The notes under the pieces: generated by a model
Databases searched by the model: none
The model's input: the letters and a program-made list of their open reading frames with translations, nothing else
Told to the model about the DNA's origin: nothing
In this document: in pieces, positions 1-43,814 of the stretch
How the letters are laid out: each line of letters begins with the position of its first letter
How positions within the stretch are numbered: the stretch's first letter is position 1
DNA from: an uncultured Ignavibacteria bacterium
Lineage (GTDB): Bacteria > Zixibacteria > MSB-5A5 > JAABVY01
Direction of reading: 5' to 3'
NCBI GenBank assembly: GCA_964627935.1
Contig: CAZVLB010000001.1
Span: 308,626 to 372,625 of the forward strand
Length of the DNA stretch: 64,000 nt
Position numbers and translations under genes: made by a program

Positions 1-604
<604 letters not shown>

Positions 605-605
<1 letters not shown>

Positions 606-1870
606 TGAATCTTTTTCGTGCTAATAGATCTGTTTCCGGCGCAGTCAGCGTATCATTTCTGTTCAGGGTCTTTCTGATCCTGGGTTTTATATTGATTGCG
701 ATTGTTTTTATTTATTACACCCAGCATGTGGTCGGTAAGCTCAAGACCAATTCCTCCCGAATGGTCAACCTCAGTATCAAACTCCTGCAACTTGAACTAT
801 CCCAGGAGGCCTCCGGTGTGGCTACCGGCGTTATTTTCGACGAGATAATCGCGCCTACGAATATACCGATTATCATTACCGACCGGGAGGGCAACCCGCT
901 TTTCTTCAGGAATATATCTGCCATCGATGAGCGCGAGGTTACCCCGGAGAATATCGATAAGCTCAGGCAGATAATCAAGGGCATGTATGAAAAACACGGC
1001 CGTTTCCCGATCAAGCATATCGATCGCGAAACAGGCACTGAGACAATAATTAACTACTTCTATTATGGCGACCCGCAACTTATCCAGCAGCTACAGGCTA
1101 TGCCCTTGATCGAAATCGGCATAGTTGCAGCTTTTCTGATGGTGGGATATATAGGATACAGAAATATCAAACGCTCCGAACAGCATTTTATCTGGGTCGG
1201 CATGGCCAAGGAAACCGCACATCAACTGGGTACGCCGATCTCATCGCTATTGGGATGGCTCGAGCTTTTAAGGACGCGTGATGAGCAATCGGCCGCCACC
1301 AATGGAAAATATAATCTCGAGCAGGTCAGCGATCGGATGTCCATGGATATCGAAAGGCTGCAGAAAATTGCCAATCGCTTTTCGCTGATTGGTTCGCGGC
1401 CCACAATGGCCACGGTCGATTTGAACAAAATAATATCCGATGTGGTTGATTATTTTCGTGACCGCCTGCCATATCAGGGGAAGGGTATCACGATCAATTT
1501 TAACCCTGGTAAAATAGCGCCTGTCAGGATCAATGCCGAGCTGATAAGCTGGGTGGTGGAGAATTTGATCAAGAATTCGATGGAGGCCTGCGATCCCCGC
1601 GAGGGAAGAATTATGATCGCCACGAGCATGTCCGCTGATAAGAAATCAGTAATTGCCGAAATAGGCGATAACGGCCGCGGTATTCAGCCCAAAAATCAGA
1701 AAAAAATCTTTGATCCGGGATTCACATCCAAAAAGAGAGGGTGGGGCTTGGGGCTTTCGCTGGCACGCCGCATTATCCGCGATTACCATAAAGGAAAAAT
1801 ATTTCTGAAGTCATCAGTTCCCGGCCGCGAAACAGTAATACAGTTCACATTGCCGGCTGAAGCGGATTAA
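605..1870 (+). CDS. Membrane sensor histidine kinase (PorY-like, partner of the downstream REC-PglZ regulator)
   Basis: Two hydrophobic segments (VSFLFRVFLILGFILIAIVFIYY; IEIGIVAAFLMVGYIGY), H-box HQLGTPISSLLGWLELL, HATPase_c G-boxes (EIGDNGRGIQP; GWGLGLSLARRII). Start ATG overlaps the serS stop (TGATG). Confidence 0.85.
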
Positions 1871-1945
1871 GACGGATCAATTTGATTAATTGGATGTTTA
1901 ATGGGCATGGCCATTAATCTCAATCAAAATAAGAAGAAGGTATAG

Positions 1946-3514
1946 ATGCAGTCTAAAGAGGAAAGCCGACGGATTCTCTGGGTTGATGATGAAATTGAGC
2001 ATCTCAGGAGCCATATAATATTTCTCGAGGAACGCGGATTTGAAGTCACGCCGGTATCATCCGGCTTTGATGCCGTGCAGGAAGTTAAAGACAATGTTTT
2101 CGACCTTGTGCTGCTTGATGAAATGATGCCGGGTATGGATGGTCTGGCGACGATGGAAGAGATTAAGGCCATCAATCCCAATCTGCCCGTGGTCATGGTT
2201 ACCAAGAGCGAGGAGGAGGATTTGATGGTGCAGGCCATCGGCCGTCAGATAGCCGATTACCTGACCAAGCCGGTCAATCCCTCCCAGGTTCTTCTGGTTG
2301 CCAAGCGTATCCTGGAGAGCAAACGGATCCAGCAGGATCATTTCACCCGTGACTATGTGCAGCAGTCCAATGCCTTGCGCACGCGCCTCTATGGTCCCAT
2401 GGAACCGTCCGACTGGATCGATGTGCACAGATTGCTCTCGCAGTGGGACGTGGAGATGGATCGTAATCCGGATGTCGGCTTCAAGGAATCACAGGCTGAT
2501 TTTCGCAAGGAATGCAATGTCGAGTTTTCAAAACATCTCGAGAAAAACTATAAATCATGGGTAAATTCCAACAAGGGCCCGGTTATGTCTCCTCAGGTTG
2601 TAAGCGAATATGTTATTCCGCATCTTCGCAAAAACCAGAAGGTTTATTTTATAGTAATCGACTGCATGCGCCTTGATCAATGGCTGACTTTTGAGCCGGT
2701 GGTTGCCGATTATTTTAAAGTTGAAAAGGACTACTATTTTTCGATACTGCCCACCGCCACGCCATTCGCCCGTAACGCCATCTTCGCCGGCGAATACCCG
2801 GATAAAGTGGCCGAGATACTTCCCAACCTGTGGAAAAATGACGGCCGTTCCGAATCATCATTAAACGCCGATGAAGATAAGCTTCTAAAACGCCAATTGG
2901 AAAAGAAATTCGTCGATCTCAAGGGCGAACTCTATTATTCCAAGGTCCTGGAGCAGAGGGAGGCCGAAAACCTGGCCAAAAAAGTGCCATCATACCAGAA
3001 TGTCGGATTGATGGCTATGGTATTCAATGCCCTTGACCTGATGGTTCATGGCCGCTCGGAATCAGATATTTTGCTTGAGGTTGCTCCCGATGAATCAGCT
3101 TTCAGGTCCCTGATGAAATCATGGTTCATGCATTCCTCTCTGTTTAGCATCCTGAAATACCTTTCACGCATTGATTGCAGGGTTGTAATCACAACCGATC
3201 ATGGCTCGATCCTGGCCAACAAGGAAACTACGGTCAAGGGACGCAAAGAAGCCTCAACCAATTTGCGTTACAAATATGGCGATAACCTGAACTGCAATCC
3301 ACGGGAAGTTGTGCTGATTAAAAATCCCGAGGATTATCGGCTTCCGCGTTTTGGCGTATCGACCACGTATATTTTCGCCAAGGAAGATTACTATTTCGTC
3401 TATCCGACACAATACCACAAGTATGTTGCCAAATATGCCAATACGTTCCAGCATGGCGGCATCTCACTTGAAGAATGTGTCCTGCCGGTGATAACTTTGT
3501 CTCCGCGAGGATGA
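1946..3514 (+). CDS. Response regulator with N-terminal receiver domain and C-terminal PglZ (alkaline-phosphatase-like) domain, PorX-like
   Basis: REC motifs (ILWVDDEIEHL; DLVLLDEMMPGMDGLATMEEIK; phospho-acceptor Asp context), followed by a ~350-aa region consistent with PglZ. Length 522 aa matches PorX (518 aa). Confidence 0.75.
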   Translation: MQSKEESRRILWVDDEIEHLRSHIIFLEERGFEVTPVSSGFDAVQEVKDNVFDLVLLDEMMPGMDGLATMEEIKAINPNLPVVMVTKSEEEDLMVQAIGRQIADYLTKPVNPSQVLLVAKRILESKRIQQDHFTRDYVQQSNALRTRLYGPMEPSDWIDVHRLLSQWDVEMDRNPDVGFKESQADFRKECNVEFSKHLEKNYKSWVNSNKGPVMSPQVVSEYVIPHLRKNQKVYFIVIDCMRLDQWLTFEPVVADYFKVEKDYYFSILPTATPFARNAIFAGEYPDKVAEILPNLWKNDGRSESSLNADEDKLLKRQLEKKFVDLKGELYYSKVLEQREAENLAKKVPSYQNVGLMAMVFNALDLMVHGRSESDILLEVAPDESAFRSLMKSWFMHSSLFSILKYLSRIDCRVVITTDHGSILANKETTVKGRKEASTNLRYKYGDNLNCNPREVVLIKNPEDYRLPRFGVSTTYIFAKEDYYFVYPTQYHKYVAKYANTFQHGGISLEECVLPVITLSPRG

Positions 3515-7246: not shown

Positions 7247-8608
7247 GTGGTTTTTTTACTTATGTCTGATGATGAATCAAAAACCGGTATGGGTAATACT
7301 GATAAGGTCATAAAGCTCGAAGAGGAAATCTCGCGCCATATAGCCGAGTTAACATCGGCCAATAAGCGTCTGAAAAGAAAAATCTTCGATCTCTATACGA
7401 TTTTCGAGATATCCCGTCATCTCAACTCTGTACTGGATACCGAAAGCCTGCTGGATGGTATTATCCTGACCATTATCGGCCAGATGGGTGTCAGCGGATG
7501 TGCCATATTTATCGCCAATCCGGATGAGTCGGGGCTGGTTCTGGCCAAGAGCAAGGGCCTCAATCTTGATCACAATCGCAAATATTTCCTGCCTTATGGT
7601 AGCCCTATTTTCGAGGCCGCTGAGGATTCGACCACACAGACTCATCATGTGGCCGAACTGGAGGCGAGATTTCCGGAAGCCGAAAATGAGATCAGGCTGT
7701 TAAAGTCAATCGACTGCGAACTGGTGATCCCGATGACCCTCAAGAACAAGGCTATTGGCATGTTGGTTGTGACGGAGAAAATATCGCGCACACCGTTTTT
7801 TGAGGATGACAAGGATTTTCTTGGAATCCTGGCCAATCAGCTTTCGGTTGCCGTTGAAAATGCGCGCCTGTTCGAATCGGAAAAAAAGGCTTACAATCAA
7901 CTTGCCAAAGCGCAACGTCAGCTGGTGGAAACAGAAAAGCTGGCCGCATTGGGGCAACTCTCGGCGCGAGTGGCTCATGAGGTCAACAATCCCCTGGGCA
8001 TAATCAAAAACTATCTCGAGCTGATGACTCAGCAGTCGCAGGGGGCGGATCAAATGATCGGTTATATTGATATCCTTAAAGAGGAGGTTAATCGTATAGC
8101 CGGCATTGTGCGCCAGCTTCTGGACTTCTATCAGCCACAGTCGATAGACAAAAAAGAGGTCAATATTGGCCGTGTGCTGGATGAAATTATGGTATTGATC
8201 TCGATGCAGATGGAAAAGCATAGAATCGAAGTTGTGAAAGAGTATTCAGCAGAACTGCCCACAATCTGGGCCTCGGCCGAACAGCTAAAGCAGGTATTTC
8301 TGAATCTTTTGATGAATTCACGGGATTTCATGCCGGAAGGGGGAAAGATCGTGATAAATGGCAGCCGTAATGGTGACTTCATTATACTCGACTTTATGGA
8401 TACCGGAATAGGAATAGAACCTGATTCATTGTCAAAAGTATTCGACCCGTTTTATACGACCAAGAAAGACGGTGCCGGAAGCGGATTGGGGCTTTCGGTC
8501 TGTTACGGAATCATCAAGAATCATGGCGGAAGCATAAACGCCAGAAATCGCAGGGAAGGCGGGGCGCAGTTTACGGTTAAACTGCCGGTGTATCATGCAA
8601 AGAAGTGA
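7247..8608 (+). CDS. Cytoplasmic sensor histidine kinase with GAF domain
   Basis: GAF-like region, HisKA H-box (HEVNNPLGIIKNYLELM), HATPase_c (DTGIGIEPD; GSGLGLSVCYGIIKNHGG). No transmembrane segment seen. Confidence 0.85.
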   Translation: MVFLLMSDDESKTGMGNTDKVIKLEEEISRHIAELTSANKRLKRKIFDLYTIFEISRHLNSVLDTESLLDGIILTIIGQMGVSGCAIFIANPDESGLVLAKSKGLNLDHNRKYFLPYGSPIFEAAEDSTTQTHHVAELEARFPEAENEIRLLKSIDCELVIPMTLKNKAIGMLVVTEKISRTPFFEDDKDFLGILANQLSVAVENARLFESEKKAYNQLAKAQRQLVETEKLAALGQLSARVAHEVNNPLGIIKNYLELMTQQSQGADQMIGYIDILKEEVNRIAGIVRQLLDFYQPQSIDKKEVNIGRVLDEIMVLISMQMEKHRIEVVKEYSAELPTIWASAEQLKQVFLNLLMNSRDFMPEGGKIVINGSRNGDFIILDFMDTGIGIEPDSLSKVFDPFYTTKKDGAGSGLGLSVCYGIIKNHGGSINARNRREGGAQFTVKLPVYHAKK

Positions 8609-10700
8609 ACAGGACGCAAAAATACTGGTGATCGATGATGAGCGTCGTATGGCGGAAAGCCTGCAGACGCTTTTAAGCGGCCTCGGTTATGAGGTGGAGA
8701 TTGCCTTTGATGGAAACCAGGGTGCCGAGAAAATCCGCAACAGCGAATATGACCTGATCATATCCGATATCAAGCTGCCCTATAAAAATGGCCTGGAGCT
8801 TCTCAACCTGGCCCGCGAAAAAGATCCTGAAGCGGTGGTAATTCTAATGACCGCCTATGCCTCACTGGAATCGGCGGTCGATGCGATCAGCCAGGGCGCC
8901 TATGATTATATTCTCAAGCCGGTTGAGTTTACTCATCTGAAGATCGCTGTCAGTCGTGCGCTTGATAAGCATTTCTCCAACAAATCCCGTCTTGAACTTT
9001 TGGAAGAGTTGCAGGAGAAGAATGAAACACTCAGCAAACGTCTGGCTGAGCTTAATGCACTATATAAAGCGGGCCATTCGCTTTCCACAACAATCGAAAC
9101 GCGCGAACTTCTGACCCAGATTATCGAGCTGGCCACCAAGGTTATCGGGGCACGAACCGGTTCAATTATGCTTCTGGATACAGAAAACAACTGCCTGAAT
9201 ATTTCGGCCTCGATCGGAATAAAAAAGGAAATCATAGAAAACACACAACTTCCACTTGGCTCATCTATTGCCGGTACAGTGGCACAGAGTGGAAAGCCTG
9301 TCATAATCGAGGATATCGAAACCGATTCTGATTTTAGACGCAAAGCCAAGAGTCAATATGCCACCAATTCGCTCATTTCGGTTCCCCTGATTGTTAAGGG
9401 CGAGGTGATCGGCGTTATCAACCTGACGGATAAAATCGAGGATGAAAAATTTACCGAAGAAGACCTTAAACTCCTGAATGCGCTGGCTTCGCAGGCCGCG
9501 ATAGCAATCGATGATGCCCGTCATTACGAGGAATCGACCAAAAAACTGCGAGAGTTTGTGGCCCTCTATGAAATCGCCTCGGAACTTCCCAACCTCGAGG
9601 ATTTCCCCCAGATGGCCCGGCTGGTGCATTTCCATATCAAGAACATCATGCCGGTCGAGATGACCTTGTGGCTATCCTATGAGCATAGGCCGGGTGTGCT
9701 GACATTCAACTTCTGGGATGGCTGGGGCAGAGAGAATTATTCCAAAGTCGAAAGCTCTGAAATTCCGCTGGTCAAGGATCAGATAAACAGCCCGACCCAG
9801 AGAGCCGAGGCGGTACTGAACTTCCTGGATGAAAAGCTATCACTCAACGGGCAAATCAAATCATTCCGCGCTGTTCCAATTTATACCAAGGGTCACCTGT
9901 ACGGTCTTTTCTGCATGGGTTCCCGTCAGGAGAAGGCCTTCATCACCGATCATGAATACCTGGCCTCGATTATTACCTCTCAGGCGGCATCATTGTATGA
10001 ACGCCAGCGGTCAATGCTCAATGCCACACGGCTCATGACCATGGGCAATATGATGTCTGAGATTTCACATGACCTGCGCAAGCCGTTGACCAATATCAAG
10101 GGTGGTCTGCAGGTGATGCGCGACCGCTGGCCGGAAAATGCCAAAAAGGATGGCTTCTTTGAGATGGCCGAGCAGGAACTTTCCCGTCTGTCTGAACTTG
10201 TCAAAGAGCTGGTTGACTTTTCGAATCCGACCCGTTATCAGACCGAGCGCAAAAAAATCGAGGATCCGATTAGCCGTGCGGTAAAACTGGTTGGACCTGA
10301 TCTGAAACGCTATAAAATAATGATGAAAACCGAATTTGAGGAAAACCTGCCGCTGGTTTCAATCAATTATAATCAGATTATCGAGACGCTTTTAAACATG
10401 TTTATCAATGCCATCGATGCCATGGATGAGGGCGGAACGCTGATCGTACGGGCATTACGCTATTTTGATGAAAAAGAGAAGCGTTCATATGTGCAGATCC
10501 AGATCGAGGATGACGGCAAGGGCATTCCGCCTGAGGACCAGGAACGTATTTTTGACCGCTATTTTACCACGAAGGATACAGGCACCGGGCTGGGACTGGC
10601 TGTGGTTGACCGCATTATAAAATCTCATAATGGCCGGATCGAGCTTCGTTCACGCCTGGGCAAGGGCACGACCTTCTATATCAACCTGCCGGTCAGCTAA
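8595..10700 (+). CDS. Hybrid signal protein: receiver domain - GAF - histidine kinase
   Basis: N-terminal REC (ILVIDDERRMAESL; DLIISDIKLP), GAF region, H-box HDLRKPLTNIKGG, HATPase_c (DTGTGLGLAVVDRIIKSHNG). Overlaps the upstream kinase gene by 14 nt, suggesting translational coupling. Confidence 0.85.
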   Translation: MQRSEQDAKILVIDDERRMAESLQTLLSGLGYEVEIAFDGNQGAEKIRNSEYDLIISDIKLPYKNGLELLNLAREKDPEAVVILMTAYASLESAVDAISQGAYDYILKPVEFTHLKIAVSRALDKHFSNKSRLELLEELQEKNETLSKRLAELNALYKAGHSLSTTIETRELLTQIIELATKVIGARTGSIMLLDTENNCLNISASIGIKKEIIENTQLPLGSSIAGTVAQSGKPVIIEDIETDSDFRRKAKSQYATNSLISVPLIVKGEVIGVINLTDKIEDEKFTEEDLKLLNALASQAAIAIDDARHYEESTKKLREFVALYEIASELPNLEDFPQMARLVHFHIKNIMPVEMTLWLSYEHRPGVLTFNFWDGWGRENYSKVESSEIPLVKDQINSPTQRAEAVLNFLDEKLSLNGQIKSFRAVPIYTKGHLYGLFCMGSRQEKAFITDHEYLASIITSQAASLYERQRSMLNATRLMTMGNMMSEISHDLRKPLTNIKGGLQVMRDRWPENAKKDGFFEMAEQELSRLSELVKELVDFSNPTRYQTERKKIEDPISRAVKLVGPDLKRYKIMMKTEFEENLPLVSINYNQIIETLLNMFINAIDAMDEGGTLIVRALRYFDEKEKRSYVQIQIEDDGKGIPPEDQERIFDRYFTTKDTGTGLGLAVVDRIIKSHNGRIELRSRLGKGTTFYINLPVS

Positions 10701-10824
10701 TTCTCTATATTTCTTTCATTTACGATTTTTTGTTTGACTAATGGGACAATATTGGTGATTTTGCAACTGATTGCTTAAAATAGGCATCAGATTGCTCAAC
10801 AAATTGCCGAATATACCGATATGA

Positions 10825-12297
10825 GTGGTAGAACAACATGGATGGCATAAAATGAAGAAAGACAAAGTAAAGCTGCTGATAATAGATGATGACCCCAAAG
10901 TGGGCTGGATTCTAACAGAAGGCCTTGAGGGACAATATGATATAAGTATCGCCCGGGATGGTGTGGAGGGCATTCAGATGGCCTCCAAGGAAAAGCCGGA
11001 ACTGGTGCTATTAGACATCAAAATGCCGGGCATGGATGGTATCGAGGTTTTGCGTAAGCTAAAAAAGGCCGATGTGCCCTCCGAGGTGGTGATGCTTTCC
11101 GGTCATGGCGAGACACAATATATTGTAGAGACGATCCAGCTCGGAGCCGCGGAATTCATCAATAAGCCCTTCGATGTAAAAGAGGTCGAGATTCATCTGC
11201 AAAAGGTCCTCGAACGCAGTCATCTTCAGCGCCGTCTCGATGAAGCTGTGGAGGAACTCCAGAAACGTAATCAGTTTGAGTCCTTCATTGGCGATTCGCC
11301 CAAGATGGTTGAGGTCAAAAACATCATTGAGCAGGTGGCCGACAGCGACCTGACTATGCTGATTCGCGGCGAATCGGGAACAGGCAAGGAAATCGTTGCG
11401 CGCACATTGCATAATCTTTCCGGCAGGGCCAATGTATCATTTACCAAGGTTAACTGCGCCGCGATCCCTCGTGACCTCCTGGAGGCCGAGCTTTTCGGCT
11501 ATGAGAAGGGCGCGTTCACCGGGGCGCATAAAACCAAGCCGGGAAGATTCGAGGTGGCCCATAAAGGCACGATTTTCCTGGATGAAATAGGCGATATGCA
11601 TATGGATCTGCAATCAAAGTTGTTGCAGGTGCTGGAACAGCAGGAATTCGTGCGCGTGGGTGGAATCCAGAATATCAAGGTCGATGTGCGCATAATCTGT
11701 GCCACCAACCGAAACCTGGAACAGGCCATTGCCGAACAGAGGTTCCGTGACGATCTGTTTTACAGGCTGAACGAAATCACCATTTTCATTCCTCCGCTCA
11801 GGGAACGCCGTGAGGATATTCCGCTCCTGGTGGATCATTTTCTCAAGAAATACAATGCCATGTATAAAAAGGATTTCGGTACAATCAGCCAGGAGACGGT
11901 TAACCGTTTGAGCGACGCGCCATGGCCCGGCAATGTTCGTCAGCTCGAAAATGTGATCAAGCAGATCGTGGTACGTGAGGATGAAAATATTGCCGAAAAT
12001 CTGCTCAAATCCGGCGCCGCGGTTGCGCCCCAGGCGGCGGCCAATAATCCCGCCCAGCAACAGGCACAGAATGCGGCATCAGCAGATACGCCCCAGCAGT
12101 CATCGAGTGAGGAGAAAGACTACGATCTGAAAAAGACTGTTTCCAAGGCTGTGGCTCGCGAGGAGAAGGCCCTGATTGCCGAGGTCTTAAACAAGGTCAA
12201 TTGGAACAGGCGCAAGGCCTCGGAGATACTGGGCGTGTCTTACCGTTCTCTGCTTTACAAAATAAAAGAGTATAAGATCAACGAGATGAACGGCTGA
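10825..12297 (+). CDS. Sigma-54-dependent transcriptional activator (NtrC family: REC - AAA+ - Fis-type HTH)
   Basis: REC (LLIIDDDP; LVLLDIKMPGMDG), sigma-54 interaction domain (GESGTGKE Walker A, GAFTGA loop, FRDDLFYRLN), C-terminal HTH. The true start may be the ATG at 10852 (MKKDKVK). Confidence 0.9.
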   Translation: MVEQHGWHKMKKDKVKLLIIDDDPKVGWILTEGLEGQYDISIARDGVEGIQMASKEKPELVLLDIKMPGMDGIEVLRKLKKADVPSEVVMLSGHGETQYIVETIQLGAAEFINKPFDVKEVEIHLQKVLERSHLQRRLDEAVEELQKRNQFESFIGDSPKMVEVKNIIEQVADSDLTMLIRGESGTGKEIVARTLHNLSGRANVSFTKVNCAAIPRDLLEAELFGYEKGAFTGAHKTKPGRFEVAHKGTIFLDEIGDMHMDLQSKLLQVLEQQEFVRVGGIQNIKVDVRIICATNRNLEQAIAEQRFRDDLFYRLNEITIFIPPLRERREDIPLLVDHFLKKYNAMYKKDFGTISQETVNRLSDAPWPGNVRQLENVIKQIVVREDENIAENLLKSGAAVAPQAAANNPAQQQAQNAASADTPQQSSSEEKDYDLKKTVSKAVAREEKALIAEVLNKVNWNRRKASEILGVSYRSLLYKIKEYKINEMNG

Positions 12298-12311: not shown

Positions 12312-14573
12312 CTATGTCTGCAAGAGATACTGAATCTTGAAAAATATCTGTCTTGAATATTGCTTCAGGCCGATATTCTCCTGCCCGTCGTAATCATGAA
12401 AATCATGCGTCGAACCGAAATACATCAGGGTAAACGGATTGAACCTGTAGGTGATCAGCGGATCGAATTCCCAGACTTGCGAGAAATCATTGTACTGGCT
12501 GATTAGGCGCAATGAAAGCTGTTTCCAGATCAGGTAGTCGACACGTGCACGCATGGCATAGCCATCGAAGATGTTCCCGCCGGTATCCAGGGAATCCGAT
12601 TTATAGTATCTGAAATTGGGTGAAATGGTCATCCGATTAAAGGGCTTTACAGTTGCCCAGAGCGAGGCTGAAAACTCGTTGCCCATGATTGGTTTCGGTT
12701 GCAAAGTCCTCGCAATCTGATGGCCGAAGCTGACTCTTGTCCCGAATCCGAGAAGATTACTGGGACGGGTATCCAGATAGACTGTCATATAGCGAATGCC
12801 CGGAAAATCGACTTCACGAAGCCTTTCCCAGCTTTCCAGGAAATGCAGGCCCAGGAAGGTTTGACCCTTGAGCTGGAATTCTGCATTGGCCCGGAACCAT
12901 TCATCCTTCTTGCGTTTATCAAAGTTCCATTTGCGCCCGATATCGAAATTGGGCTGGAAGCGTATCAGCATACCCTTGTTGACATAGAAATTGAAGCCGA
13001 ATGAAAAATCACCCAGACGGTAATTGTTCTGGCCCTCGAACCCATTTTCGGCACGAAATGTGGGTGATGCTTCCCAGTAATCCAGATCGAACCACCAGTG
13101 CTTGGTGAATCTTTCGAAGCTGGCATAAACCGCATGCCCCCAGTATTTTTCGCCGTCAAAATCTGCGGTGTTTCGCCCGCGGTTGAATTCCAAACCGTTA
13201 ATTCCATTTGTGATTGTGGGATCGTCCGGCTCATTCATATGGCTGGCGATAATCTGGGTTTCGATCTGGAAATTTTTCCAGAATTTGTATCCCATTTCCG
13301 CACTCAGGGCCGAACCGGCACCGCCCTCCGTATAACGTCTGTCAGTGATTGTTGCGCCCAGATGCGAATCCTCACCCATACTCTGTTTGACGCGGAAAAT
13401 ATTTGTGTAACTCTTGCCGTTTTCCAGGAATGCACTGCCTTCCTCGAAGGGAATGATGACCGGCGAGTGTTCATCATAGGCGGTCAGGAAAGCGATATTG
13501 GTTTTGTTCATTCGCGCGATATACTTGCCGGCCGCGATCGGATCATTGATTGAGCGTGTATAAACCAGATCGAACCATGAGTTAAACAGGTCACTGCCTT
13601 CCTGGAAGAAGGGTCGTCTTTCCGGGTAGAACAGGGCAAAGGTCGAGTTGACATTGATTTCGGTTGCATCCGATTCGACCTGGCTGAAATCCGGATTTAT
13701 CGTGGCCTCGGCGGTCATGTCGGATGAGATCGAATATTTCATGCCCAGCGAGGCTTCGCCCTGAATATCACCATTTACAAAGTTTGATGTCGGATCGCCG
13801 GTATTGGCAAGTGAACCGCTCTGGTAACTTACGAATGAGGGCAGAAACTCGATCGGGTTGCCCGATTCGACATTCCTGATTCCACGCAGGGTGCCCCATT
13901 GGCAGACAAAACAGGGTTCATCACGATCATAGGCGGCAAGTGAATATTGACGGCGGATTTCACGCGGGTGATTGCGCCAGAATTCCGCTTTCCAGACCTG
14001 TTCCTCGCGGTTGGGGAATTTCAGGCTGGAGAACGGAATCGCTATCTCCACCTGAAAACCGGAATCGGTGACATAGCCGTGCGAATCCCAGATCAGGTCA
14101 AAGCTGGCGTCCTCGCCGCCTTCGCTCGACCAGAGCGCATCGACCTGAACTCCATAGGGATTGACATTGAAGAAATAGGCCCATGACGCGTTACCGTAGG
14201 TATCTATAAAAAAGCCGACATTATCATCGCCGCCAAAGTTATCTCTTTCACTGTGTGAGGCTCTTACTTCCGATGGGTCATCATGAGCTATAAAGGCCAC
14301 ATAGATTTTATCCGCATCGTATGTGATCAAAGCTTCGGTTTTAACCGGCGGCTGACACATATCGCCGGGAAAACGCTCATGGAAATGATCGAAACGGGCG
14401 GCATCATGCCATCCCGGATCATCCAGATTGCCATCGATTTCTATTTTACTTTTGGTTGGATTGACTTCTATATCTGGTGAAAATATCTGTGTAAATGATG
14501 CGTAAGCAGGTTGTATGGCAAAGATACAAATGCCCGTAAGTATTAAAGTTAAGGTCTTTTTGCTAATCCCCAT
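12312..14573 (-). CDS. Large secreted protein, N-terminal CBM9/DOMON-like domain plus beta-rich C-terminal region (DUF5916-like); paralog of 14720-16978
   Basis: Signal peptide (LTLILTGICIFAIQPAYA), SD GGGAG upstream of the ATG at 14573, ~40% identity by eye to the adjacent paralog over the full length, shared C-terminus FFFKIQYL. Family assignment is from memory and unverified. Confidence 0.6.
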   Translation of the reverse strand: MGISKKTLTLILTGICIFAIQPAYASFTQIFSPDIEVNPTKSKIEIDGNLDDPGWHDAARFDHFHERFPGDMCQPPVKTEALITYDADKIYVAFIAHDDPSEVRASHSERDNFGGDDNVGFFIDTYGNASWAYFFNVNPYGVQVDALWSSEGGEDASFDLIWDSHGYVTDSGFQVEIAIPFSSLKFPNREEQVWKAEFWRNHPREIRRQYSLAAYDRDEPCFVCQWGTLRGIRNVESGNPIEFLPSFVSYQSGSLANTGDPTSNFVNGDIQGEASLGMKYSISSDMTAEATINPDFSQVESDATEINVNSTFALFYPERRPFFQEGSDLFNSWFDLVYTRSINDPIAAGKYIARMNKTNIAFLTAYDEHSPVIIPFEEGSAFLENGKSYTNIFRVKQSMGEDSHLGATITDRRYTEGGAGSALSAEMGYKFWKNFQIETQIIASHMNEPDDPTITNGINGLEFNRGRNTADFDGEKYWGHAVYASFERFTKHWWFDLDYWEASPTFRAENGFEGQNNYRLGDFSFGFNFYVNKGMLIRFQPNFDIGRKWNFDKRKKDEWFRANAEFQLKGQTFLGLHFLESWERLREVDFPGIRYMTVYLDTRPSNLLGFGTRVSFGHQIARTLQPKPIMGNEFSASLWATVKPFNRMTISPNFRYYKSDSLDTGGNIFDGYAMRARVDYLIWKQLSLRLISQYNDFSQVWEFDPLITYRFNPFTLMYFGSTHDFHDYDGQENIGLKQYSRQIFFKIQYLLQT

Positions 14574-14719: not shown

Positions 14720-16978
14720 TCAAATTTGCATCAGGTATTGAATCTTGAAAAAGAACTGCTGTGACGTCTGCCTGAAACTGGTATCATTAAAATTTTCGTA
14801 ATCATGAATATCATGAGTCGACCCGGCATACAGCATCGTAAATGGATTGATCTGGTATGTGATCAGGGGATCGATCTCGAGATTTTTATAATAATCGTTG
14901 TACTGGGTAATCAGCCTGAATGAAAGTTCGCGGCTGAACTGGTAGTTTATTTTCATGCGCGTTGTATAGATTTCGAACAACTGGCGGTCGACACCAAGCT
15001 CATCGCTAACCATGTACCGATATGAAGGGCTGAATGTAATCCGGTCAACAGGCCTGAGGTTGAGGCTTAAATATAGTGAAAGCTCTCTTCCCATTACTGC
15101 CGGTGCCACATTGCGTGCAATCTGATTGCCATAATTGACCGCCATTCCCAAACCTACGGTTTTTGACAGCTGGCTGTTCATGCAATAATGCGCCATCCAG
15201 ATATTATCAAACTGGATGCCAGCGAAATTTTCCGCACCGTAGTAAAAACGCGGATGAATACCGGTCTGGCCAATGGCTCTAAAATCGGCTTCCAGGCTGA
15301 TATATTCATCTTTAATCAGTCCGTTAAAATTCCAGACCCGTCCGGCCATGACATAGGGCCTGATCTTCTGGAATATTTTGCCCTGCGGATAAAAATTATA
15401 TCCGCTGTAGATTGACACCTTGCGCTGGTTATTGACCGGCTCGAAACCATTAGCGGCTCGGAATGTCGGGCTTCGTTCAAAATAGCTCACATCAACAACG
15501 AGTCCTCTCGAGGAATAACCGGTGGAGCCATAAAGCGCATGCCCCCAGAATTTTTCTCCGTCAAAGACAGCCGTATGTTTGCCGTCGTCAAACGTGTAAT
15601 CGCCAAATCCTGCAGTCTGCCCGGGATCATCATCCTCCGCAGTGCGGCTGGCCGTGGCCATCCATTGCAGGTAAAAGTTTTGGCTGAGACGGATATCACC
15701 GTCGACACCGAATAACGTCCCCGATCCGCCATCCTCAAACCTGCGGTCTGTTAAGACCAGGCCCATGAGTGAATTGTCGCCCATTGTCCGGCGCAGCCTG
15801 AAAATATTGGAGATGCTTTTTCCGGCCTGGATGTATGCGCTGTTTTCCTCGAAAGGCAGGATGATGGGCGAATGCTGATCACGTGCTGTCAGGAGGGCAA
15901 TACTTGTTCGGCCGCTACGGTTAACCAGCTTGGCGGCGTATTGCGGATCATTGATCGAACGTGTATAGACCACATCGATCCAGCTGTTGTAGAGGTCCGA
16001 GCCCTCCTGGAAAAAGGGCCGCTTTTCGGGATAGAACAGGGCGAAAGTCGTATTCACGTCTATCTGAGTAGCATCTGACTCAACCTGGCTGAAGTCAGGA
16101 TTAAAGGTAGCCTCAGCCACAAGACTGGACGAAAGTGAATATTTAATGCCCATTGATATTTCGCCGTCGATATCGGCCCGCTGCCAATCCGATGATGGAT
16201 CACGCAGGTCGCTCAGGCTGCCGCTTTGATAGCCGATTAATGAGGGCAGGATCTCGATACCCTGGCCGGGGGAAACATCTTCGATACCATGTAATGAGCC
16301 CCAGTTGCATGACAGGCAGGTTTCATTGCGGTCATAGGCCGACCAGCAGTACTGGTATTCGATTTCGCGCGGCCGATGGCGCATGATATCCAGGCTCCAT
16401 TGCTGTTCATTTTTGTCGGGAAAACGCAGGCTGGAAAAGGGAATGGCCAGTTCCACCTGATAGCCGGAGTCGGTTATCTGTGCCGCGGCATGCCAGATCA
16501 GGTCATAGCTGAAATCATCACTGTTGCCCTTTACGAAAATTGCATCGCCCTGGATTCCGCGCGGATTGACCTGGAAGATATACCCCTGGGCGCCGTCGCC
16601 GTATGTGTCGAACATAAAACAGACATCGTCATCATTGGATATTTTATCCCGTTCGCACAATGAGGCACGGATCAACTCAGGATTGTCATGACAGACTATA
16701 AAGGCATATAGATTGCTGTTATCATAGGTTACATAGGCTCTGGTTTCGACTGCAGGCTTTGTGTTTTCGCCGGGATAGTTTTCGCAGAAATTATCCATGA
16801 CCGCCGCATTGCGCCAGCCCGGGTCGCCGTATTTGCCGTCAATTGAAATCTCCCGGTCTGTTTTTTTGACAGTTAATTTCGGATGAACATTTGGTGAAAA
16901 ATCAGGTCCGGCTTTCAGGCCCGGACCTATCAGCAATATTGAAAAAAGTGTGATCAGCGATAGCAGTTTTGTTTTCAT
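14720..16978 (-). CDS. Large secreted protein, CBM9/DOMON-like plus DUF5916-like; tandem paralog of 12312-14573
   Basis: Start chosen at the internal ATG (MKTKLLSLITLFSILLIGPGLKA signal peptide), preceded by GGAGGAGG. The ORF track extends to 17032 but that N-terminus lacks a signal peptide. Confidence 0.6.
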   Translation of the reverse strand: MKTKLLSLITLFSILLIGPGLKAGPDFSPNVHPKLTVKKTDREISIDGKYGDPGWRNAAVMDNFCENYPGENTKPAVETRAYVTYDNSNLYAFIVCHDNPELIRASLCERDKISNDDDVCFMFDTYGDGAQGYIFQVNPRGIQGDAIFVKGNSDDFSYDLIWHAAAQITDSGYQVELAIPFSSLRFPDKNEQQWSLDIMRHRPREIEYQYCWSAYDRNETCLSCNWGSLHGIEDVSPGQGIEILPSLIGYQSGSLSDLRDPSSDWQRADIDGEISMGIKYSLSSSLVAEATFNPDFSQVESDATQIDVNTTFALFYPEKRPFFQEGSDLYNSWIDVVYTRSINDPQYAAKLVNRSGRTSIALLTARDQHSPIILPFEENSAYIQAGKSISNIFRLRRTMGDNSLMGLVLTDRRFEDGGSGTLFGVDGDIRLSQNFYLQWMATASRTAEDDDPGQTAGFGDYTFDDGKHTAVFDGEKFWGHALYGSTGYSSRGLVVDVSYFERSPTFRAANGFEPVNNQRKVSIYSGYNFYPQGKIFQKIRPYVMAGRVWNFNGLIKDEYISLEADFRAIGQTGIHPRFYYGAENFAGIQFDNIWMAHYCMNSQLSKTVGLGMAVNYGNQIARNVAPAVMGRELSLYLSLNLRPVDRITFSPSYRYMVSDELGVDRQLFEIYTTRMKINYQFSRELSFRLITQYNDYYKNLEIDPLITYQINPFTMLYAGSTHDIHDYENFNDTSFRQTSQQFFFKIQYLMQI

Positions 16979-17245
16979 GACCTCCTCCATCTCTGAAATC
17001 TGGATACGAAAAACTGGACAAAATAGTTTCATTTCAACTTTGAGCGAGAAATCATCGCCTTACAAAAAACCGATGACATTTATGTCCAGAAGGGAGGTTG
17101 TTTTTTGAAAGCCCATATATAGTATTGGTTTTGATGTAAATTGATTTTAAATTGTCAGGGTCATGAAATGCGCATAGGAAATCAAAAAAAATCTAACTTG
17201 CTTTTTTTTGAATAGGCTCTTAATTGGGCGGTAATTGGTGTAGTT

Positions 17246-27026: not shown

Positions 27027-29531
27027 ATGCAATCGGACAGCTCATGCGCCAAAAAATCAAATGTGATTAGAATCACTATTCTTTCATTTTTTTCTGTACT
27101 GGTCTTGACTGCGGCCCTCTATGGCGGAGAGGTCACGGTCAGTTATGATTTCCAGGCTCCTGTTATTGAGAAGGTCATAATCGATGGCAAGATGTATGAT
27201 CGAGTGATCATGCCACAGACCTCGAATGGGGGAGAGACGGGCGAGCCCTCATTGCCATCCTCCGGAGCAAAAATTCTGATTCCGGCCAACTCCCGGGTTG
27301 AATCAATCCAGGTTACATTGGGTGATGAAATCTCCCTGGGCGATGGATTCTCAGTCGAGCCGTGTGGCTATCCGTTCAAGCTAAGCGCGCCCGAAGAGAT
27401 AGTTCCACCGCAACCGGATGCACAGATATATTCATCCGATGAGGCTTTTCCGGGAATAACGTATGAGCGAATAAATACTTATACATTGCGTGGCTATGAT
27501 ATCCTTATCCTTAAGCTTAATCCGGTACAGTATAAGCCGCTCAGCGGTGAACTTTCCTATTCTGATCAAATGCAGATTACTGTCAATACTGCAGATGCAG
27601 TTTACAGCAGGGAGACTTTTCGGGGAACGGCATCGGATGAACAGTCCGTGATCGATATCGTGGACAATCCCGAGACAGTTTTTTCGTATCGATCACTGCC
27701 GTCAAAAAATTATGGCGGCCGCGATCAATATGATCTGTTGATCATCACCAGCGAGGCGCTTAAACCGGCTTTCGATACGCTCAAGGCCTACCATGATTCC
27801 ACCGGAATGTCGACCTCGATACGAACCGAAGTCGATCTTGATATTTCCAGCGCATACCTGGTGAGAAAGTATATCAGGGATTTCTATAATGACTATGGAA
27901 TCGAGTATGTCCTGATAGGTGCGGATGATAATATCATCCCGGCTATGGATCTGTATGTGAAATCGTGGGACGGATATAATCCAGAAATTGAATATGAAAT
28001 GCCCGGCGATATCTACTTCGCCTGCCTTGATGATACATGGAATCATGACCGCGATGAGCACTGGGGAGAACCCAATGATGGGCCCGACGGCGGTGATGTC
28101 GATCTTATGGCCGATGTAAATGTCGGCCGTGCCTCTGTGGGCAATATCCCTGAGGCCAACAACTTTGTGCGCAAGACCATTGATTATGCCAACCTGTCCC
28201 GTTCGCAGCCGTATTTGCAGAATATCCTGCTGGTGGGTGAACATCTCGGTTTCGGGGGAGTCAGCGAATATGCCGGTAACTGCATGGATCAGCTCAAAAA
28301 CACATCATCATCAGACGGCTATACGACAACCGGGTTCGACACCAGCCTGTATGTTGTCGACCAGCTTTATGACCGCGACTGGACCGGAAACAACTGGCCC
28401 AAGGCTCAGGTTGTAAATCGCATAAATGAGGGCCGTCATTTTGTAAATCACCTCGGTCATGGCAGTCCCGGCTATGCCATGAAAATGTATAACAGCGATG
28501 TTGCCTATCTGACCAATGATGATTACTGCTTTGTATACTCGCAAACCTGCCTGGCGGGACATTTTGATAACACAGATTGTTTTGCCGAGTATATGACCAT
28601 AAAATATATGAATGGCGCATTTGCAATTGTCATGAATGCCCGTTACGGCTGGGGAATGTCAAACAGCACCGATGGTCCCTCGCAGAGATTCCACAGGCAG
28701 TTCCTGGATGCGATTTATGCCGAAAACACGCGCTCATTCAGCAAAGCCAACCATGATTCCAAACATGACAACCTGTATCGAATAAATCAGAGCTGTATGC
28801 GCTGGTGCTATTATGAGCTCAACCTTTTCGGCGATCCGACACTGGAGATGAATTATCACTGCGTCGATCCGGATGCCGATGGTTTTGCCACGCCCGGTTA
28901 TGAAAACAGCGAATGCCCGACCGACAACTGCCCCGGTTTTTATAACCCGGATCAGCTCGACAGCGACGGCGATGGTTTCGGCGACAGCTGTGACCTGTGC
29001 CAGGGATTCGATGATAATATAGACAGCGATGCCGATGGTGTCCCGGATGGCTGTGATATGTGCGCCGGTTATGACGATTATGCCGATGCGGATGAAGACA
29101 CTGTTCCGGATGGCTGCGATGTCTGCCCGGGTCATGATGACCTTCTGGACAGCGATGGCGATCTGCTGGCAGATGGATGTGATAACTGCCCCGATCATGC
29201 CAACGCCGAACAGCTCGATTATGACCAGGATGGGGTCGGAGATTTATGTGATAACTGTCCCGGCGACAGCAATCCGGATCAGGCCGATTCAGATTCTGAC
29301 GGTACCGGCGATGTCTGCGAATACATATGCGGTGACTGTAATGCCGATGGCGCGGTGAATGTCTCCGATGCGGTCGGTATTATCAATTACGTGTTCGTCT
29401 CAGGCAGTCCGGAACCGGATCCGATGGAATCCGGGGATGTTAATTGTGATGATAATGTTGATGTGTCCGATGGTGTTTACATCATCAACTTTATCTTTAC
29501 AAATGGGGATAACCCCTGCGACTGTGAATAG
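27027..29531 (+). CDS. Secreted clan-CD cysteine peptidase (gingipain/C25-like) with thrombospondin type 3 repeats and C-terminal dockerin-like module
   Basis: Signal peptide; His-Gly (VNHLGHGSPG) and Cys (YSQTCLAGHFD) dyad motifs in caspase-like order; ~8 TSP3-like repeats (DxDxDGxxDxCDxC); C-terminal CGDCNADGAVNVSDAVGIINYVF...PCDCE. Confidence 0.6.
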   Translation: MQSDSSCAKKSNVIRITILSFFSVLVLTAALYGGEVTVSYDFQAPVIEKVIIDGKMYDRVIMPQTSNGGETGEPSLPSSGAKILIPANSRVESIQVTLGDEISLGDGFSVEPCGYPFKLSAPEEIVPPQPDAQIYSSDEAFPGITYERINTYTLRGYDILILKLNPVQYKPLSGELSYSDQMQITVNTADAVYSRETFRGTASDEQSVIDIVDNPETVFSYRSLPSKNYGGRDQYDLLIITSEALKPAFDTLKAYHDSTGMSTSIRTEVDLDISSAYLVRKYIRDFYNDYGIEYVLIGADDNIIPAMDLYVKSWDGYNPEIEYEMPGDIYFACLDDTWNHDRDEHWGEPNDGPDGGDVDLMADVNVGRASVGNIPEANNFVRKTIDYANLSRSQPYLQNILLVGEHLGFGGVSEYAGNCMDQLKNTSSSDGYTTTGFDTSLYVVDQLYDRDWTGNNWPKAQVVNRINEGRHFVNHLGHGSPGYAMKMYNSDVAYLTNDDYCFVYSQTCLAGHFDNTDCFAEYMTIKYMNGAFAIVMNARYGWGMSNSTDGPSQRFHRQFLDAIYAENTRSFSKANHDSKHDNLYRINQSCMRWCYYELNLFGDPTLEMNYHCVDPDADGFATPGYENSECPTDNCPGFYNPDQLDSDGDGFGDSCDLCQGFDDNIDSDADGVPDGCDMCAGYDDYADADEDTVPDGCDVCPGHDDLLDSDGDLLADGCDNCPDHANAEQLDYDQDGVGDLCDNCPGDSNPDQADSDSDGTGDVCEYICGDCNADGAVNVSDAVGIINYVFVSGSPEPDPMESGDVNCDDNVDVSDGVYIINFIFTNGDNPCDCE

Positions 29532-29728: not shown

Positions 29729-31210
29729 ATGAAATTAAAATCAGCATCACTAATTATTTTCATGCTTCTAATGGCCGCTGTAACATTAAACGCTGCCAAC
29801 CGGGTGATAATGAATTCGATTCCGCAATCGCCGGTTCATAATACGGAAACTGTTCTTCAGATTGTGACTCAATGGGAAAACGACATCCTTCTGCAGGGCG
29901 TTTCCAATGGATTCGAGTTGACTGTCAGTGGAAATATCGTTTGTGAGATAGATTCCGGAAGTGCCGCAATCGTAGCAGGAAGCCGTCTTGACGGCGCAAT
30001 GGGCTGGAATTTCCGCTATTACCAGGCGCCGTTCGATTCAATAATCATGGGCGGTATCTATATTCCCGGCACATATGATGGTGTGCCCGCCGGAGCATTA
30101 GCTGATGCCTGGACAATGGACCTGAACCTGTCTTATCCCGGCGGAGATCCGGTAACAGATACAGGAACGGTATGTATTGACTCATTGTCGATCTCACCCT
30201 CGGGGCAGTGGATCTGGGATGACGGTACGGGAAACATCAATCCGACTTTTAATGACGGCACGGGTCCGTTGTGCATAGAGGTTGTCTGGCAGATTTGTAC
30301 CGATTCCGATAATGACGGCTATGGTGATCCCGGATTTCCCGAGAATGAATGCCCTGATGATAACTGTCCCGATGTCTTCAATCCGGATCAGCTTGATTCC
30401 GACGGTGATGGTGTCGGCGATTTGTGTGATATCTGCCCCAATCATGAGCTGGATGATTGCTGTAATCCCACAGTAGATAATAATGCACCTCAGATTACAT
30501 CACCATCCAGTATAACGGTTCTTCCGGTTGTGGATGAGGTCAATTATATTGCTGAATGTGATGATCCCGATTGTTCGGGCGGTGAATTGATTTTCAGTGT
30601 CGAGAATGTGCCCGCATGGCTGATTCTCAATGGCGATACGATAAGCGGCACGGCATCATGCGGCGAAGAGGATGCATTGCTGAGACTGATCGTTTCCGAC
30701 GGCACATTGGCGGATACGCTGATAGTCACGGTTGATGTCGATAATAGCAACCAGGCACCACAGATTACAGATCCGGCCGATACGATCAAAGTCTATAACG
30801 GTACTGAATTTGTGTATTATCCGACCATCGATGATCCTGATGATGCTACCCATACGATTAATTATCTGGCATTGCCCGACTGGGCCTCGGTCGTAAATGA
30901 CAGTGTTAAGGCCACCGTACCGTTGGTCAATAATATTCAGGACCTGACAGTGGCTGTCTCCGATGTTTGCGGCGCGGACACATTGAGCTTCCCGGTCTGG
31001 GCCTATATCTGCGGTGATGGTAATAATGACGGCGATGTAAATGTCAGTGATGCTGTCTGGATCATCAACTATGTTTTTGTCAGTGGTGATGCTCCGCTGC
31101 CGATTGAGGCCGGAGATGCTAACTGCGACGGCGATGTTAATGTCAGCGACGCGGTCTGGATCATTAACTTTGTATTCGTCAGCGGCCCGGCCCCCTGCGA
31201 GTGCCCATAA
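29729..31210 (+). CDS. Secreted protein with TSP3 repeats, Ig/cadherin-like domains and C-terminal dockerin-like module
   Basis: Signal peptide (LIIFMLLMAAVTLNAA), TSP3 repeats (DSDNDGYGD...CPDVFNPDQLDSDGDGVGDLCDIC), C-terminal [23 protein letters not shown]...PCECP. Confidence 0.65.
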   Translation: MKLKSASLIIFMLLMAAVTLNAANRVIMNSIPQSPVHNTETVLQIVTQWENDILLQGVSNGFELTVSGNIVCEIDSGSAAIVAGSRLDGAMGWNFRYYQAPFDSIIMGGIYIPGTYDGVPAGALADAWTMDLNLSYPGGDPVTDTGTVCIDSLSISPSGQWIWDDGTGNINPTFNDGTGPLCIEVVWQICTDSDNDGYGDPGFPENECPDDNCPDVFNPDQLDSDGDGVGDLCDICPNHELDDCCNPTVDNNAPQITSPSSITVLPVVDEVNYIAECDDPDCSGGELIFSVENVPAWLILNGDTISGTASCGEEDALLRLIVSDGTLADTLIVTVDVDNSNQAPQITDPADTIKVYNGTEFVYYPTIDDPDDATHTINYLALPDWASVVNDSVKATVPLVNNIQDLTVAVSDVCGADTLSFPVWAYICGDGNNDGDVNVSDAVWIINYVFVSGDAPLPIEAGDANCDGDVNVSDAVWIINFVFVSGPAPCECP

Positions 31211-35277: not shown

Positions 35278-35289
35278 GAGTTAATAGAA

Positions 35290-36450: not shown

Positions 36451-36845
36451 TGTTTCCGGCAAGAATATGGAGAGAAAGGCCGCAGAGATATCGTCTCGAG
36501 GCGGTCAAGAATAAAGCCACCGGCGAGGTCTATTTCCCGCCCCGCGTGGTAGACAGAGACGGCAAGAAGTTCGAAGCCGAAAATTATATCCTTCCCAGCG
36601 AAGGAAAGATTCATACCTATACAATCATCGAGGTTCCTCCCAGCCAGTTCAAAGATGAGGCTCCCTATGTTGTCGGTATAGTCGAGCTTTCCGATGGTAC
36701 TAAGCTGACCTGCCAGATCACCGATCTGGCCGACAAAAGCTGGCTTGGCATCGGCAAGAAAGTTCGCCTGGAATTCAGAAGAGTCCAGACCGACAGCCAT
36801 CATGGAGTATTGTCTTACGGCTATAAAGCCGTGCCGGCGGAGTAA
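36450..36845 (+). CDS. OB-fold (DUF35-like) acyl-CoA-associated protein, scaffold partner of thiolase/HMGCS
   Basis: 131-aa protein in the conserved third position of thiolase-HMGCS-DUF35 operons; OB-fold-like pattern; the Zn-ribbon cysteines appear to be absent. Confidence 0.6.
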
Positions 36846-36847
36846 CG

Positions 36848-38458: not shown

Positions 38459-38475
38459 CCGGGAAGGATTATCCG

Positions 38476-39261: not shown

Positions 39262-39271
39262 ATAATCAAAC

Positions 39272-40774: not shown

Positions 40775-40775
40775 A

Positions 40776-41285: not shown

Positions 41286-41319
41286 ACTTTTTCTGCATAT
41301 GTGGCCCTTCAAAATTTTC

Positions 41320-41353
41320 AACCCACCGTTCCATGATGGTGGGTTTTGTTTTG
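41320..41353 (+). terminator. Rho-independent terminator after the BCCP gene (end of the acyl-CoA carboxylase operon)
   Basis: CCCACC-gttccatgat-GGTGGG followed by TTTTGTTTTG. Confidence 0.7.
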
Positions 41354-42922: not shown

Positions 42923-42946
42923 GACAACTTACGGGAGGTTTTCGAG

Positions 42947-43801: not shown

Positions 43802-43814
43802 ATGAGGAGTTTAT

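Follow-up and report, generated by a model that had tools for sequence, protein, structure and literature searches.

Does the pair of adjacent genes near the start of this stretch of DNA, which encode a membrane histidine kinase and a response regulator with a C-terminal PglZ domain, represent the PorY-PorX two-component system in a lineage outside the Bacteroidia, and what might such a system control there? To our knowledge, PorXY has been studied almost solely in Porphyromonas gingivalis, where the two genes are unlinked and opinions differ on what the PglZ domain does. We analysed the complete stretch of 64,000 nucleotides (hereafter, the window), for which an initial annotation had placed the two open reading frames (ORFs) at 605..1870 and 1946..3514 of the forward strand; both were found at exactly these positions. 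Our reading of the locus, to which we assign a probability of about 0.82, is that it encodes a Zixibacterial orthologue of the PorY-PorX system, in an operon-like unit with the order serS-porY-porX-tsaE(-tsaB-rimI-accD-folC). Pfam identifies the two flanking genes as serS and tsaE, as had been annotated. The unit comprises the following features, in which SD denotes Shine-Dalgarno:

1..605 (+): serS, 3' part, which encodes seryl-tRNA synthetase and opens the conserved array; Pfam tRNA-synt_2b, 129 bits
605..1870 (+): porY orthologue, which encodes a sensor histidine kinase of the membrane with 421 aa; BLASTP comparison with P. gingivalis PorY, and HATPase_c
1871..1945 (+): porY-porX spacer, 75 nt, with an SD-like AAGAAGG and a 20-nt palindrome, and no terminator
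1946..3514 (+): porX orthologue, 522 aa, with receiver, three-helix linker and PglZ domain (alkaline-phosphatase-like phosphodiesterase); NF052313
3518..3949 (+): tsaE, P-loop ATPase/kinase of the UbK/YjeE family; Pfam TsaE, 134 bits
3992..7237 (+): tsaB, rimI, accD and folC, which complete the closely packed array and read in the same direction; Pfam matches

Identity of the response regulator

Both parts of the 522-residue regulator are matched by Pfam above the gathering scores, namely the receiver by Response_reg with 86.6 bits (aa 10-116) and the C-terminal region by PglZ with 58.1 bits (aa 231-426). The NCBIfam equivalog model of PorX (NF052313, T9SS_RR_PorX) matches with 665.2 bits, relative to a cutoff of 300, and is covered from position 2 to position 513 of 513. 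Among solved structures, the regulator aligns over its full length with PorX from P. gingivalis (7pv7, E 2.7e-134) and from Flavobacterium johnsoniae (8ted, E 6.3e-124). The functional positions are located as follows:

1973..2293 (+): PorX receiver domain, aa 10-116; Pfam Response_reg
2117..2119 (+): codon of the predicted phospho-acceptor Asp58; codon checked, with D14, D15, T86 and K108 also present
2636..3508 (+): PorX PglZ domain, of the alkaline phosphatase superfamily (APS), aa 231-521; Pfam PglZ
2759..2761 (+): codon of the predicted nucleophile Thr272, which aligns with T272 of P. gingivalis PorX

The metal ligands D239, D364, H368, D418, H419 and H503 are conserved in the alignment. 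Together with D14, D15, D58, T86, K108 and T272, they form a set of 12 residues that is invariant in 82 of 82 PorX orthologues. The residues of P. gingivalis PorX that were mutated by Schmitz et al., i.e., D58, T272 and D361/H365 (PMC9757075), align with D58, T272 and D364/H368 of the window protein. The equivalog match, the full-length structure matches and the intact residues thus bear out the receiver-PglZ architecture of PorX that the initial annotation had recognized, and we conclude that the regulator is, by homology, a PorX orthologue with its predicted catalytic residues intact.

PglZ is also the hallmark domain of bacteriophage exclusion (BREX) systems, and a secondary NCBIfam match to the BREX-3 PglZ (NF033449, 115.7 bits) could be taken to mean that the protein is part of a BREX-type phage defence. 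This score is far under the cutoff of that model, 250 bits, and compares with 665 bits for PorX. In addition, the protein carries an N-terminal receiver domain, and its length is that of PorX (500-530 aa) rather than that of a BREX PglZ (>600 aa) (PMC9757075). Neither pglX, brxC nor any other BREX gene lies nearby. A BREX identity was rejected on the grounds of score, size and neighbours, and its probability is, in our estimate, negligible.

Identity of the kinase

In Pfam, the kinase matches HATPase_c with 66.5 bits, and HisKA below threshold (21.5 versus 26.9 bits). NCBIfam holds no curated model of PorY, and a search of the PDB returned no solved PorY structure; for this reason, the porY gene itself was recovered. 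Primers that amplify nt 26-526 of porY have been published by Yang et al. (PMC8050853). An exact-match scan of a metagenome collection for both priming sites at the published spacing yielded five contigs (L089-L093), each of which contains an ORF of 395 aa with a coding sequence of 1,185 nt, the published length of porY (PMC4800418).

Compared directly by BLASTP with this P. gingivalis PorY (L090:1201-2388), the window kinase is 33% identical over 404 aa (224 bits, E 5e-74), in an alignment that runs end to end (aa 19-421 of the window kinase, aa 16-393 of PorY). The periplasmic sensor region of PorY by itself also finds the window kinase, with 30.9 bits and E 8e-8. Across the ~1.3 Mb of sequence examined, the scores against PorY fall into two separate groups: the 21 of 21 kinases linked to porX score 181-220 bits, and all other kinases, including two GAF-domain kinases of the window, score at most 67 bits. 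The best curated NCBIfam family on the window kinase is AtoS, whose match of 122 bits covers the core only and is below that of PorY. The predicted organization of the protein is the following:

629..742 (+): hydrophobic segment 1, aa 9-46, predicted signal-anchor or first transmembrane (TM) helix; Kyte-Doolittle, 19-residue windows >1.6
743..1087 (+): predicted periplasmic sensor, aa 47-161 (~115 aa), predicted PDC/Cache-like fold
1088..1162 (+): predicted TM helix 2, aa 162-186; hydropathy analysis
1220..1222 (+): codon of His206, predicted autophosphorylation site
1541..1861 (+): catalytic ATP-binding domain, aa 313-419; Pfam HATPase_c, with N box at aa 320, G1 at aa 355 and G2 at aa 379

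This topology agrees with that published for PorY, in which an N-terminal hydrophobic segment, a periplasmic loop and a TM helix precede the phospho-acceptor and ATPase domains in a protein of ~395 aa (PMC4800418). The H-box around His206, KETAHQLGTPISSL, is the same as in P. gingivalis PorY. What had been described as a PorY-like kinase can accordingly be assigned, at the level of sequence, as a PorY orthologue. PorY orthologues in Latescibacterota and Gemmatimonadota reach ~600 aa (L023:5103-6962, L029:5133-6929, L042:5151-6986), which, relative to the ~420 aa of the Zixibacterial and the 395 aa of the P. gingivalis protein, implies a putative enlargement of the N-terminal or sensor region.

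Operon structure and host

The genes of the array are tightly spaced. The TGA stop of serS and the ATG of porY overlap by 1 nt (TGATG); the SD-like AAGAAGG in the porY-porX spacer lies 7 nt ahead of the porX ATG; and a gap of 3 nt separates the porX stop from tsaE, whose SD (GAGGA) is within the 3' end of porX. No terminator-like site was found between these array genes, and the counts of promoter-like and terminator-like sites are at chance level. Because of the close spacing and the absence of a terminator-like site, co-transcription of serS-porY-porX-tsaE as an operon-like unit is likely. In locus L001, a serS of full length lies upstream of the kinase.

The porY-porX spacer contains a 20-nt palindrome, TTAATGGGCATGGCCATTAA, at ~1898-1917, which is not followed by a T-run. 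A regulatory RNA or terminator in the spacer was considered and rejected: its folding does not surpass that of shuffled sequences (z 0.05), and it has neither a terminator-like site nor an Rfam match.

An SD core is present at -18..-5 in 25 of 46 starts of the window, compared with 10.6% of random positions, and strong SD 5-mers in 22% of starts, compared with 1.6%. This frequency confirms the SD use noted at the outset, and is consistent with a host outside the Bacteroidia. The host belongs to the Zixibacteria. For both proteins, the closest homologues come from named Zixibacteria, with which PorX also groups in the tree described below. PorX is reported to be confined to bacteria of the FCB group (Fibrobacteres-Chlorobi-Bacteroidetes), mostly Bacteroidetes (Schmitz et al., PMC9757075). 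A Zixibacterial PorX fits this known range, since PorX is already on record across the group; the suggestion of a PorXY system in a different lineage is thus upheld as regards the host, and loses the element of surprise. What the locus adds is an orthologous PorXY system in a phylum for which none had been described.

Gene order across the FCB group

An alignment of PorX was scanned against one genome per species, and the ORFs of the resulting 80 loci were searched with the window proteins. These loci span Zixibacteria, Eisenbacteria, Latescibacterota, Gemmatimonadota, Fibrobacterota, KSB1, Calditrichota, Cloacimonadota, Marinimicrobia, Ignavibacteria, Rhodothermales/Balneolales and many Bacteroidia. 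A PorY-family kinase is encoded upstream of porX in 19 of the 73 informative loci, mostly with serS before porY, and all 19 belong to Zixibacteria, Eisenbacteria, Latescibacterota, Gemmatimonadota, Fibrobacterota or unlabelled relatives. The linked order was additionally found in L094 and L097. It holds in the closest relative, on a contig of 138 kb, and in the complete Zixibacterial genome CP070796.1, where porX is broken only by a 100-N scaffold gap; a porX pseudogene was rejected for that genome, the break being the gap itself. Synteny of the porYX array with tsaB-rimI-accD-folC spans several phyla and extends to L003-L007, L013, L015, L021, L037, L043, L047, L048 and L061. No linked porY was found in any of the sampled loci from Bacteroidota, Ignavibacterium/Melioribacter, Calditrichota, Cloacimonadota, Marinimicrobia or Rhodothermales, and the sampled Bacteroidota loci have no PorY-family kinase within 7 kb upstream of porX. 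The adjacency is therefore real in the window, as the initial annotation stated, but it is not peculiar to this genome; it is a conserved arrangement in five FCB phyla.

A neighbour-joining tree of PorX follows the phyla, which suggests that the gene has been inherited vertically, and every linked locus falls in one cluster. One event accounts for the distribution of linked and unlinked loci. As a rule, two-component pairs originate co-encoded, and we favour a split on that basis; that is, the linked order is probably ancestral, and the 'orphan' arrangement of Bacteroidota is probably a derived split of the operon.

Some of the labels attached to these loci are at odds with their content. The names of several 'binchicken' metagenome-assembled genomes (MAGs), i.e., Ignavibacteriales, Chromatiales and Limnohabitans, clash with the PorX tree and with synteny (L004, L007 and L015, and also L019, L032 and L066). 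The three 'Ignavibacteriales' loci with a linked porY (L004, L007, L015) nest inside the Zixibacterial branch, and these MAGs are therefore probably mislabelled.

Other variations of the locus were seen. In the Eisenbacteria loci L028, L033, L040 and L061, an insertion of 0.8-5.4 kb separates porY from porX, with both serS-porY and porX-tsaE kept. A flagellin gene precedes porY, or the pair serS-porY, by one or two genes in a Zixibacterium (L094:7333-8097), a Latescibacterium (L023:3202-4029) and a Gemmatimonadete (L042:3608-4963); as a conserved neighbour of porY it was rejected, being present in only 3 of ~21 linked loci, from three phyla, and absent upstream of the window (L001). In the recovered P. 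gingivalis contigs, serS is not near porY, and porY is followed by an ORF of 584 aa (L090:2847-4601) that, by eye, resembles a RecJ-type exonuclease.

Relation to type IX secretion

In P. gingivalis and other Bacteroidota, PorX co-occurs with the T9SS (type IX secretion system) throughout (PMC9757075), and SprA or cargo with sorting domains has been reported in Fibrobacter, Gemmatimonas and Caldithrix (PMC12611786, PMC6851124, PMC11285876). Searches of the literature library available found no publication that pairs Zixibacteria with T9SS or with dockerin. Using the model of the T9SS type A sorting domain (TIGR04183, cutoff 23 bits), we found this domain at the extreme C-terminus of proteins from three Zixibacterial genomes: in CP070796.1 (L082:4502-7324 (+), 39.1 bits), on the 138-kb contig of the closest relative (L095:18649-22793 (-), 40.9 bits) and in L096:1-785 (+) (37.9 bits). 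T9SS-type cargo exists in this lineage, and a T9SS as the output of PorXY here is plausible for that reason. A genome with no secretion system or secretome to regulate would have spoken against the initial annotation; the cargo in the lineage points the other way, although the machinery genes themselves were not observed.

Several points weigh against this picture of the locus. Neither the window nor ~150 sampled Zixibacterial genes showed a core T9SS gene (porK/L/M/N, sprA/sov, porV, porU), in a survey that included no genome-wide search. None of the window ORFs tested carries a T9SS sorting domain (TIGR04183/PF18962), PF18962 is present in 0 of the 120 closest homologues of the C25 peptidase described below, and the surroundings of the locus yielded no extracytoplasmic function (ECF) sigma factor. 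Transfer of the phosphate, phosphodiesterase activity and the binding of PorL would hold here by extension from homologues only. Lastly, the tree is unrooted or midpoint-rooted, and the event that separates linked from unlinked loci could be either a split of the operon on the side of the Bacteroidota or a joining of the genes within the opposite clade.

The initial annotation had further proposed that PorXY regulates a dockerin-tagged secretome encoded in the same window. Such proteins are indeed present; Pfam Dockerin_1 matches above its cutoff at the C-terminus of five of them:

27027..29531, 29729..31210 and 31570..33222 (+), 51714..53969 and 54022..56607 (-): dockerin-tagged hydrolases of secreted type

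Of the five, which all end in a dockerin of type I, one is a C25 peptidase (gingipain family) with propeptide, one is C39-like, two are M1 aminopeptidases and the last is a protein of unassigned function. Several contain thrombospondin type 3 repeats, and no cohesin was detected in the window. Dockerin is also found in ~32 of the 120 closest C25-peptidase homologues.

For control of these peptidases by PorXY one can cite the presence of five dockerin-tagged hydrolases within the same 64 kb, the closest relative, in which porYX and a dockerin/C25 cluster lie ~25 kb apart on one contig, and the C25 family itself, that of the gingipains, which are secreted by the T9SS in P. gingivalis. Yet the dockerin genes fall outside the conserved housekeeping array and are separated from porYX by 23-53 kb and by unrelated genes; the proteins lack a T9SS sorting domain; more distant Zixibacteria and other phyla have the porYX array with no such cluster within 7-10 kb; and no regulatory link of any sort was found. 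Furthermore, the T9SS-type cargo of the lineage carries the usual TIGR04183 domain, not dockerin. The proposal was therefore not sustained, and we consider it highly improbable.

Two related ideas were rejected. The C25 peptidase is not the T9SS sortase PorU, whose model it matches with 60 bits relative to a cutoff of 420. Nor is dockerin a disguised sorting domain: it has no TIGR04183/PF18962 match, and an iterative search seeded with the Zixibacterial sorting domain came back empty in the window. In the closest relative, the protein with the sorting domain adjoins a dockerin/C25 cluster that is syntenic with that of the window, ~35 kb from the porYX of that genome. Dockerin and T9SS tags thus occur side by side in neighbouring L095 genes.

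The downstream gene tsaE

The gene directly downstream of porX is tsaE in 71 of 78 informative loci, Bacteroidota included. The window TsaE has all four UbK motifs, namely the Walker A GELGAGKT at aa 35, SPT at aa 60, HVDCYR at aa 77 and EW at aa 107. According to a 2026 paper, ubK1, a member of the TsaE/YjeE family, follows porX in 81 P. gingivalis strains, and UbK1 phosphorylates P. gingivalis PorX on Tyr79 in vitro (PMC13241743). Our survey extends the porX-tsaE linkage beyond P. gingivalis to the whole FCB group. Across the 82 orthologues, P. gingivalis is alone in having Tyr at position 79, where the window PorX has Asn; because of this restriction, the ancient linkage cannot rest on Tyr79. 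The initial annotation had used serS and tsaE as landmarks on either side of the pair. The position of tsaE is as it described, but a gene of the UbK family that is a near-universal downstream partner of porX is no neutral landmark. In the window, tsaB and rimI come after tsaE; this is the usual gene set for N6-threonylcarbamoyladenosine (t6A), and marks the gene as the housekeeping tsaE.

This neighbourhood allows another interpretation, in which PorX serves chiefly as a housekeeping regulator, or as an oligonucleotide phosphodiesterase, with ties to translation and tRNA modification; PorY would provide the envelope input and TsaE/UbK the translation input, and T9SS control would be absent or secondary. 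It would account for the position of the array, which has serS on one side, the t6A genes tsaE-tsaB-rimI on the other, and accD and folC in the same direction, and for a porX-tsaE adjacency that holds in every FCB lineage sampled. The phosphorylation of PorX by UbK1 (PMC13241743), the degradation of short oligonucleotides by PorX (PMC9757075) and the absence of T9SS machinery genes from every sampled neighbourhood are likewise in line with it. It is opposed by the T9SS type A cargo of the three Zixibacterial genomes and by the co-occurrence of PorX and T9SS across Bacteroidota (PMC9757075). The restriction of Tyr79 to P. gingivalis means, moreover, that the specific coupling to UbK1 is not ancient, and accD and folC as neighbours make the array a mix of unrelated housekeeping genes. 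On balance, we regard a mainly housekeeping role as unlikely.

Other genes of the window

After folC, 7247..12297 encodes a GAF histidine kinase, a hybrid receiver-GAF histidine kinase and a sigma-54-dependent response regulator; the two GAF kinases recur at the same place in the Zixibacteria-like loci L004, L005, L007, L015 and L097. They are followed by two adjacent paralogues of ~760 aa at 12312..14573 and 14720..17032 (-), each with CBM9-like and DUF5916 domains. A long co-directional cluster at 34231..46105 resembles branched-chain or leucine-type acyl-CoA catabolism, and includes genes for HMG-CoA-synthase-like, thiolase-like and carboxyltransferase proteins, enoyl-CoA hydratase, biotin carboxylase and carrier, thiolase, 3-hydroxyacyl-CoA dehydrogenase and two acyl-CoA dehydrogenases. 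Towards the 3' end of the window, a signalling cluster at 57431..63469 encodes a GAF-SpoIIE phosphatase with an anti-sigma-type kinase (HATPase_c_2), a HEAT-repeat protein of 684 aa, a CheY-like protein that has the receiver as its single domain, and CheR. The gene for CheR suggests that the organism has a chemotaxis pathway.

Proposed mechanism

Orthology of both proteins, intact active sites, gene order and its conservation, and sorting signals in the lineage are what the analysis established directly. The steps by which the PorY-PorX system would operate on this basis are drawn from work on P. gingivalis and F. johnsoniae (PMC4800418, PMC9757075, PMC10951265, PMC8050853). PorY would detect a periplasmic cue through its PDC/Cache-like loop of ~115 aa, autophosphorylate on His206 and pass the phosphate to Asp58 of PorX. 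Phosphorylated PorX would then dimerize, which would switch on the zinc-dependent PglZ phosphodiesterase, with Thr272 as the presumed nucleophile; in this active form, PorX may cleave short oligonucleotides, both linear and cyclic. The PorX dimer would also contact the motor protein PorL/GldL and/or an ECF sigma factor, and so tune type IX secretion. The co-encoded TsaE/UbK is likely to be a second input to PorX, or a partner of it.

A broader evolutionary scheme can be put forward tentatively. It is possible, though we would not expect it, that porY-porX-tsaE(ubK) is an ancient signalling module of three genes, common to the entire FCB superphylum and ancestrally transcribed together with serS and the t6A genes, in which PorX integrates the envelope signal from PorY with TsaE/UbK, linked to translation and tRNA modification. 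T9SS control would then be one output, perhaps a later one, and the orphan genes of Bacteroidota the remains after porY and serS moved away.

Significance and comparison with known systems

These results are a refinement by comparative genomics, and do not overturn current understanding. Their main by-products are an order with porY and porX linked, found in five phyla, a sensor domain of PorY that is conserved, and the FCB-wide porX-tsaE pair. The pairing of PorY with PorX gains independent genomic support, in that the same kinase family is encoded directly upstream of porX in five other phyla. The periplasmic sensor of PorY is conserved from Zixibacteria to Porphyromonas and has a PDC/Cache-like appearance, which favours a cue of a general kind, from the envelope or from metabolism, over one that is specific to a host, such as hemin; the signal is, by this argument, probably general. 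This conservation would also provide proteins that are more tractable in screens for ligands. Finally, a porX-tsaE/ubK coupling that is old and FCB-wide, with Tyr79 unconserved, alters how the UbK1-PorX result generalizes.

Compared with PorX-PorY of P. gingivalis, both proteins are orthologous (PorX 42% identical in the 7pv7 alignment, PorY 33%, with an identical H-box), with the same domain architectures, all catalytic residues conserved and tsaE/ubK1 directly 3' of porX. The systems differ in that porY and porX are far apart ('orphan') in P. gingivalis, whereas here they are adjacent and apparently co-transcribed, in an SD-using Zixibacterium whose PorX has Asn in place of the UbK1 phosphosite Tyr79. 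Neither a SigP-like sigma factor nor a T9SS core gene was identified here in the sequence available.

F. johnsoniae PorX (Fjoh_2906; 8ted) is homologous over its full length (E 6.3e-124) and shares the arrangement of receiver, three-helix bundle and APS domain. Phosphodiesterase activity and GldL binding have been shown for that protein, for which no cognate kinase has been characterized. BREX PglZ proteins, e.g., that of BREX-3 (NF033449), have in common with PorX the alkaline-phosphatase-like PglZ fold and the metal-binding residues; they differ in lacking a receiver domain, in their length of >600 aa and in their defence-island context. With the UbK1-PorX pair of P. gingivalis (PMC13241743), the window shares the gene order, porX followed by tsaE/ubK, and a TsaE with the full complement of UbK motifs. 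The linkage was documented there in 81 P. gingivalis strains only, whereas here it is found throughout the FCB group.

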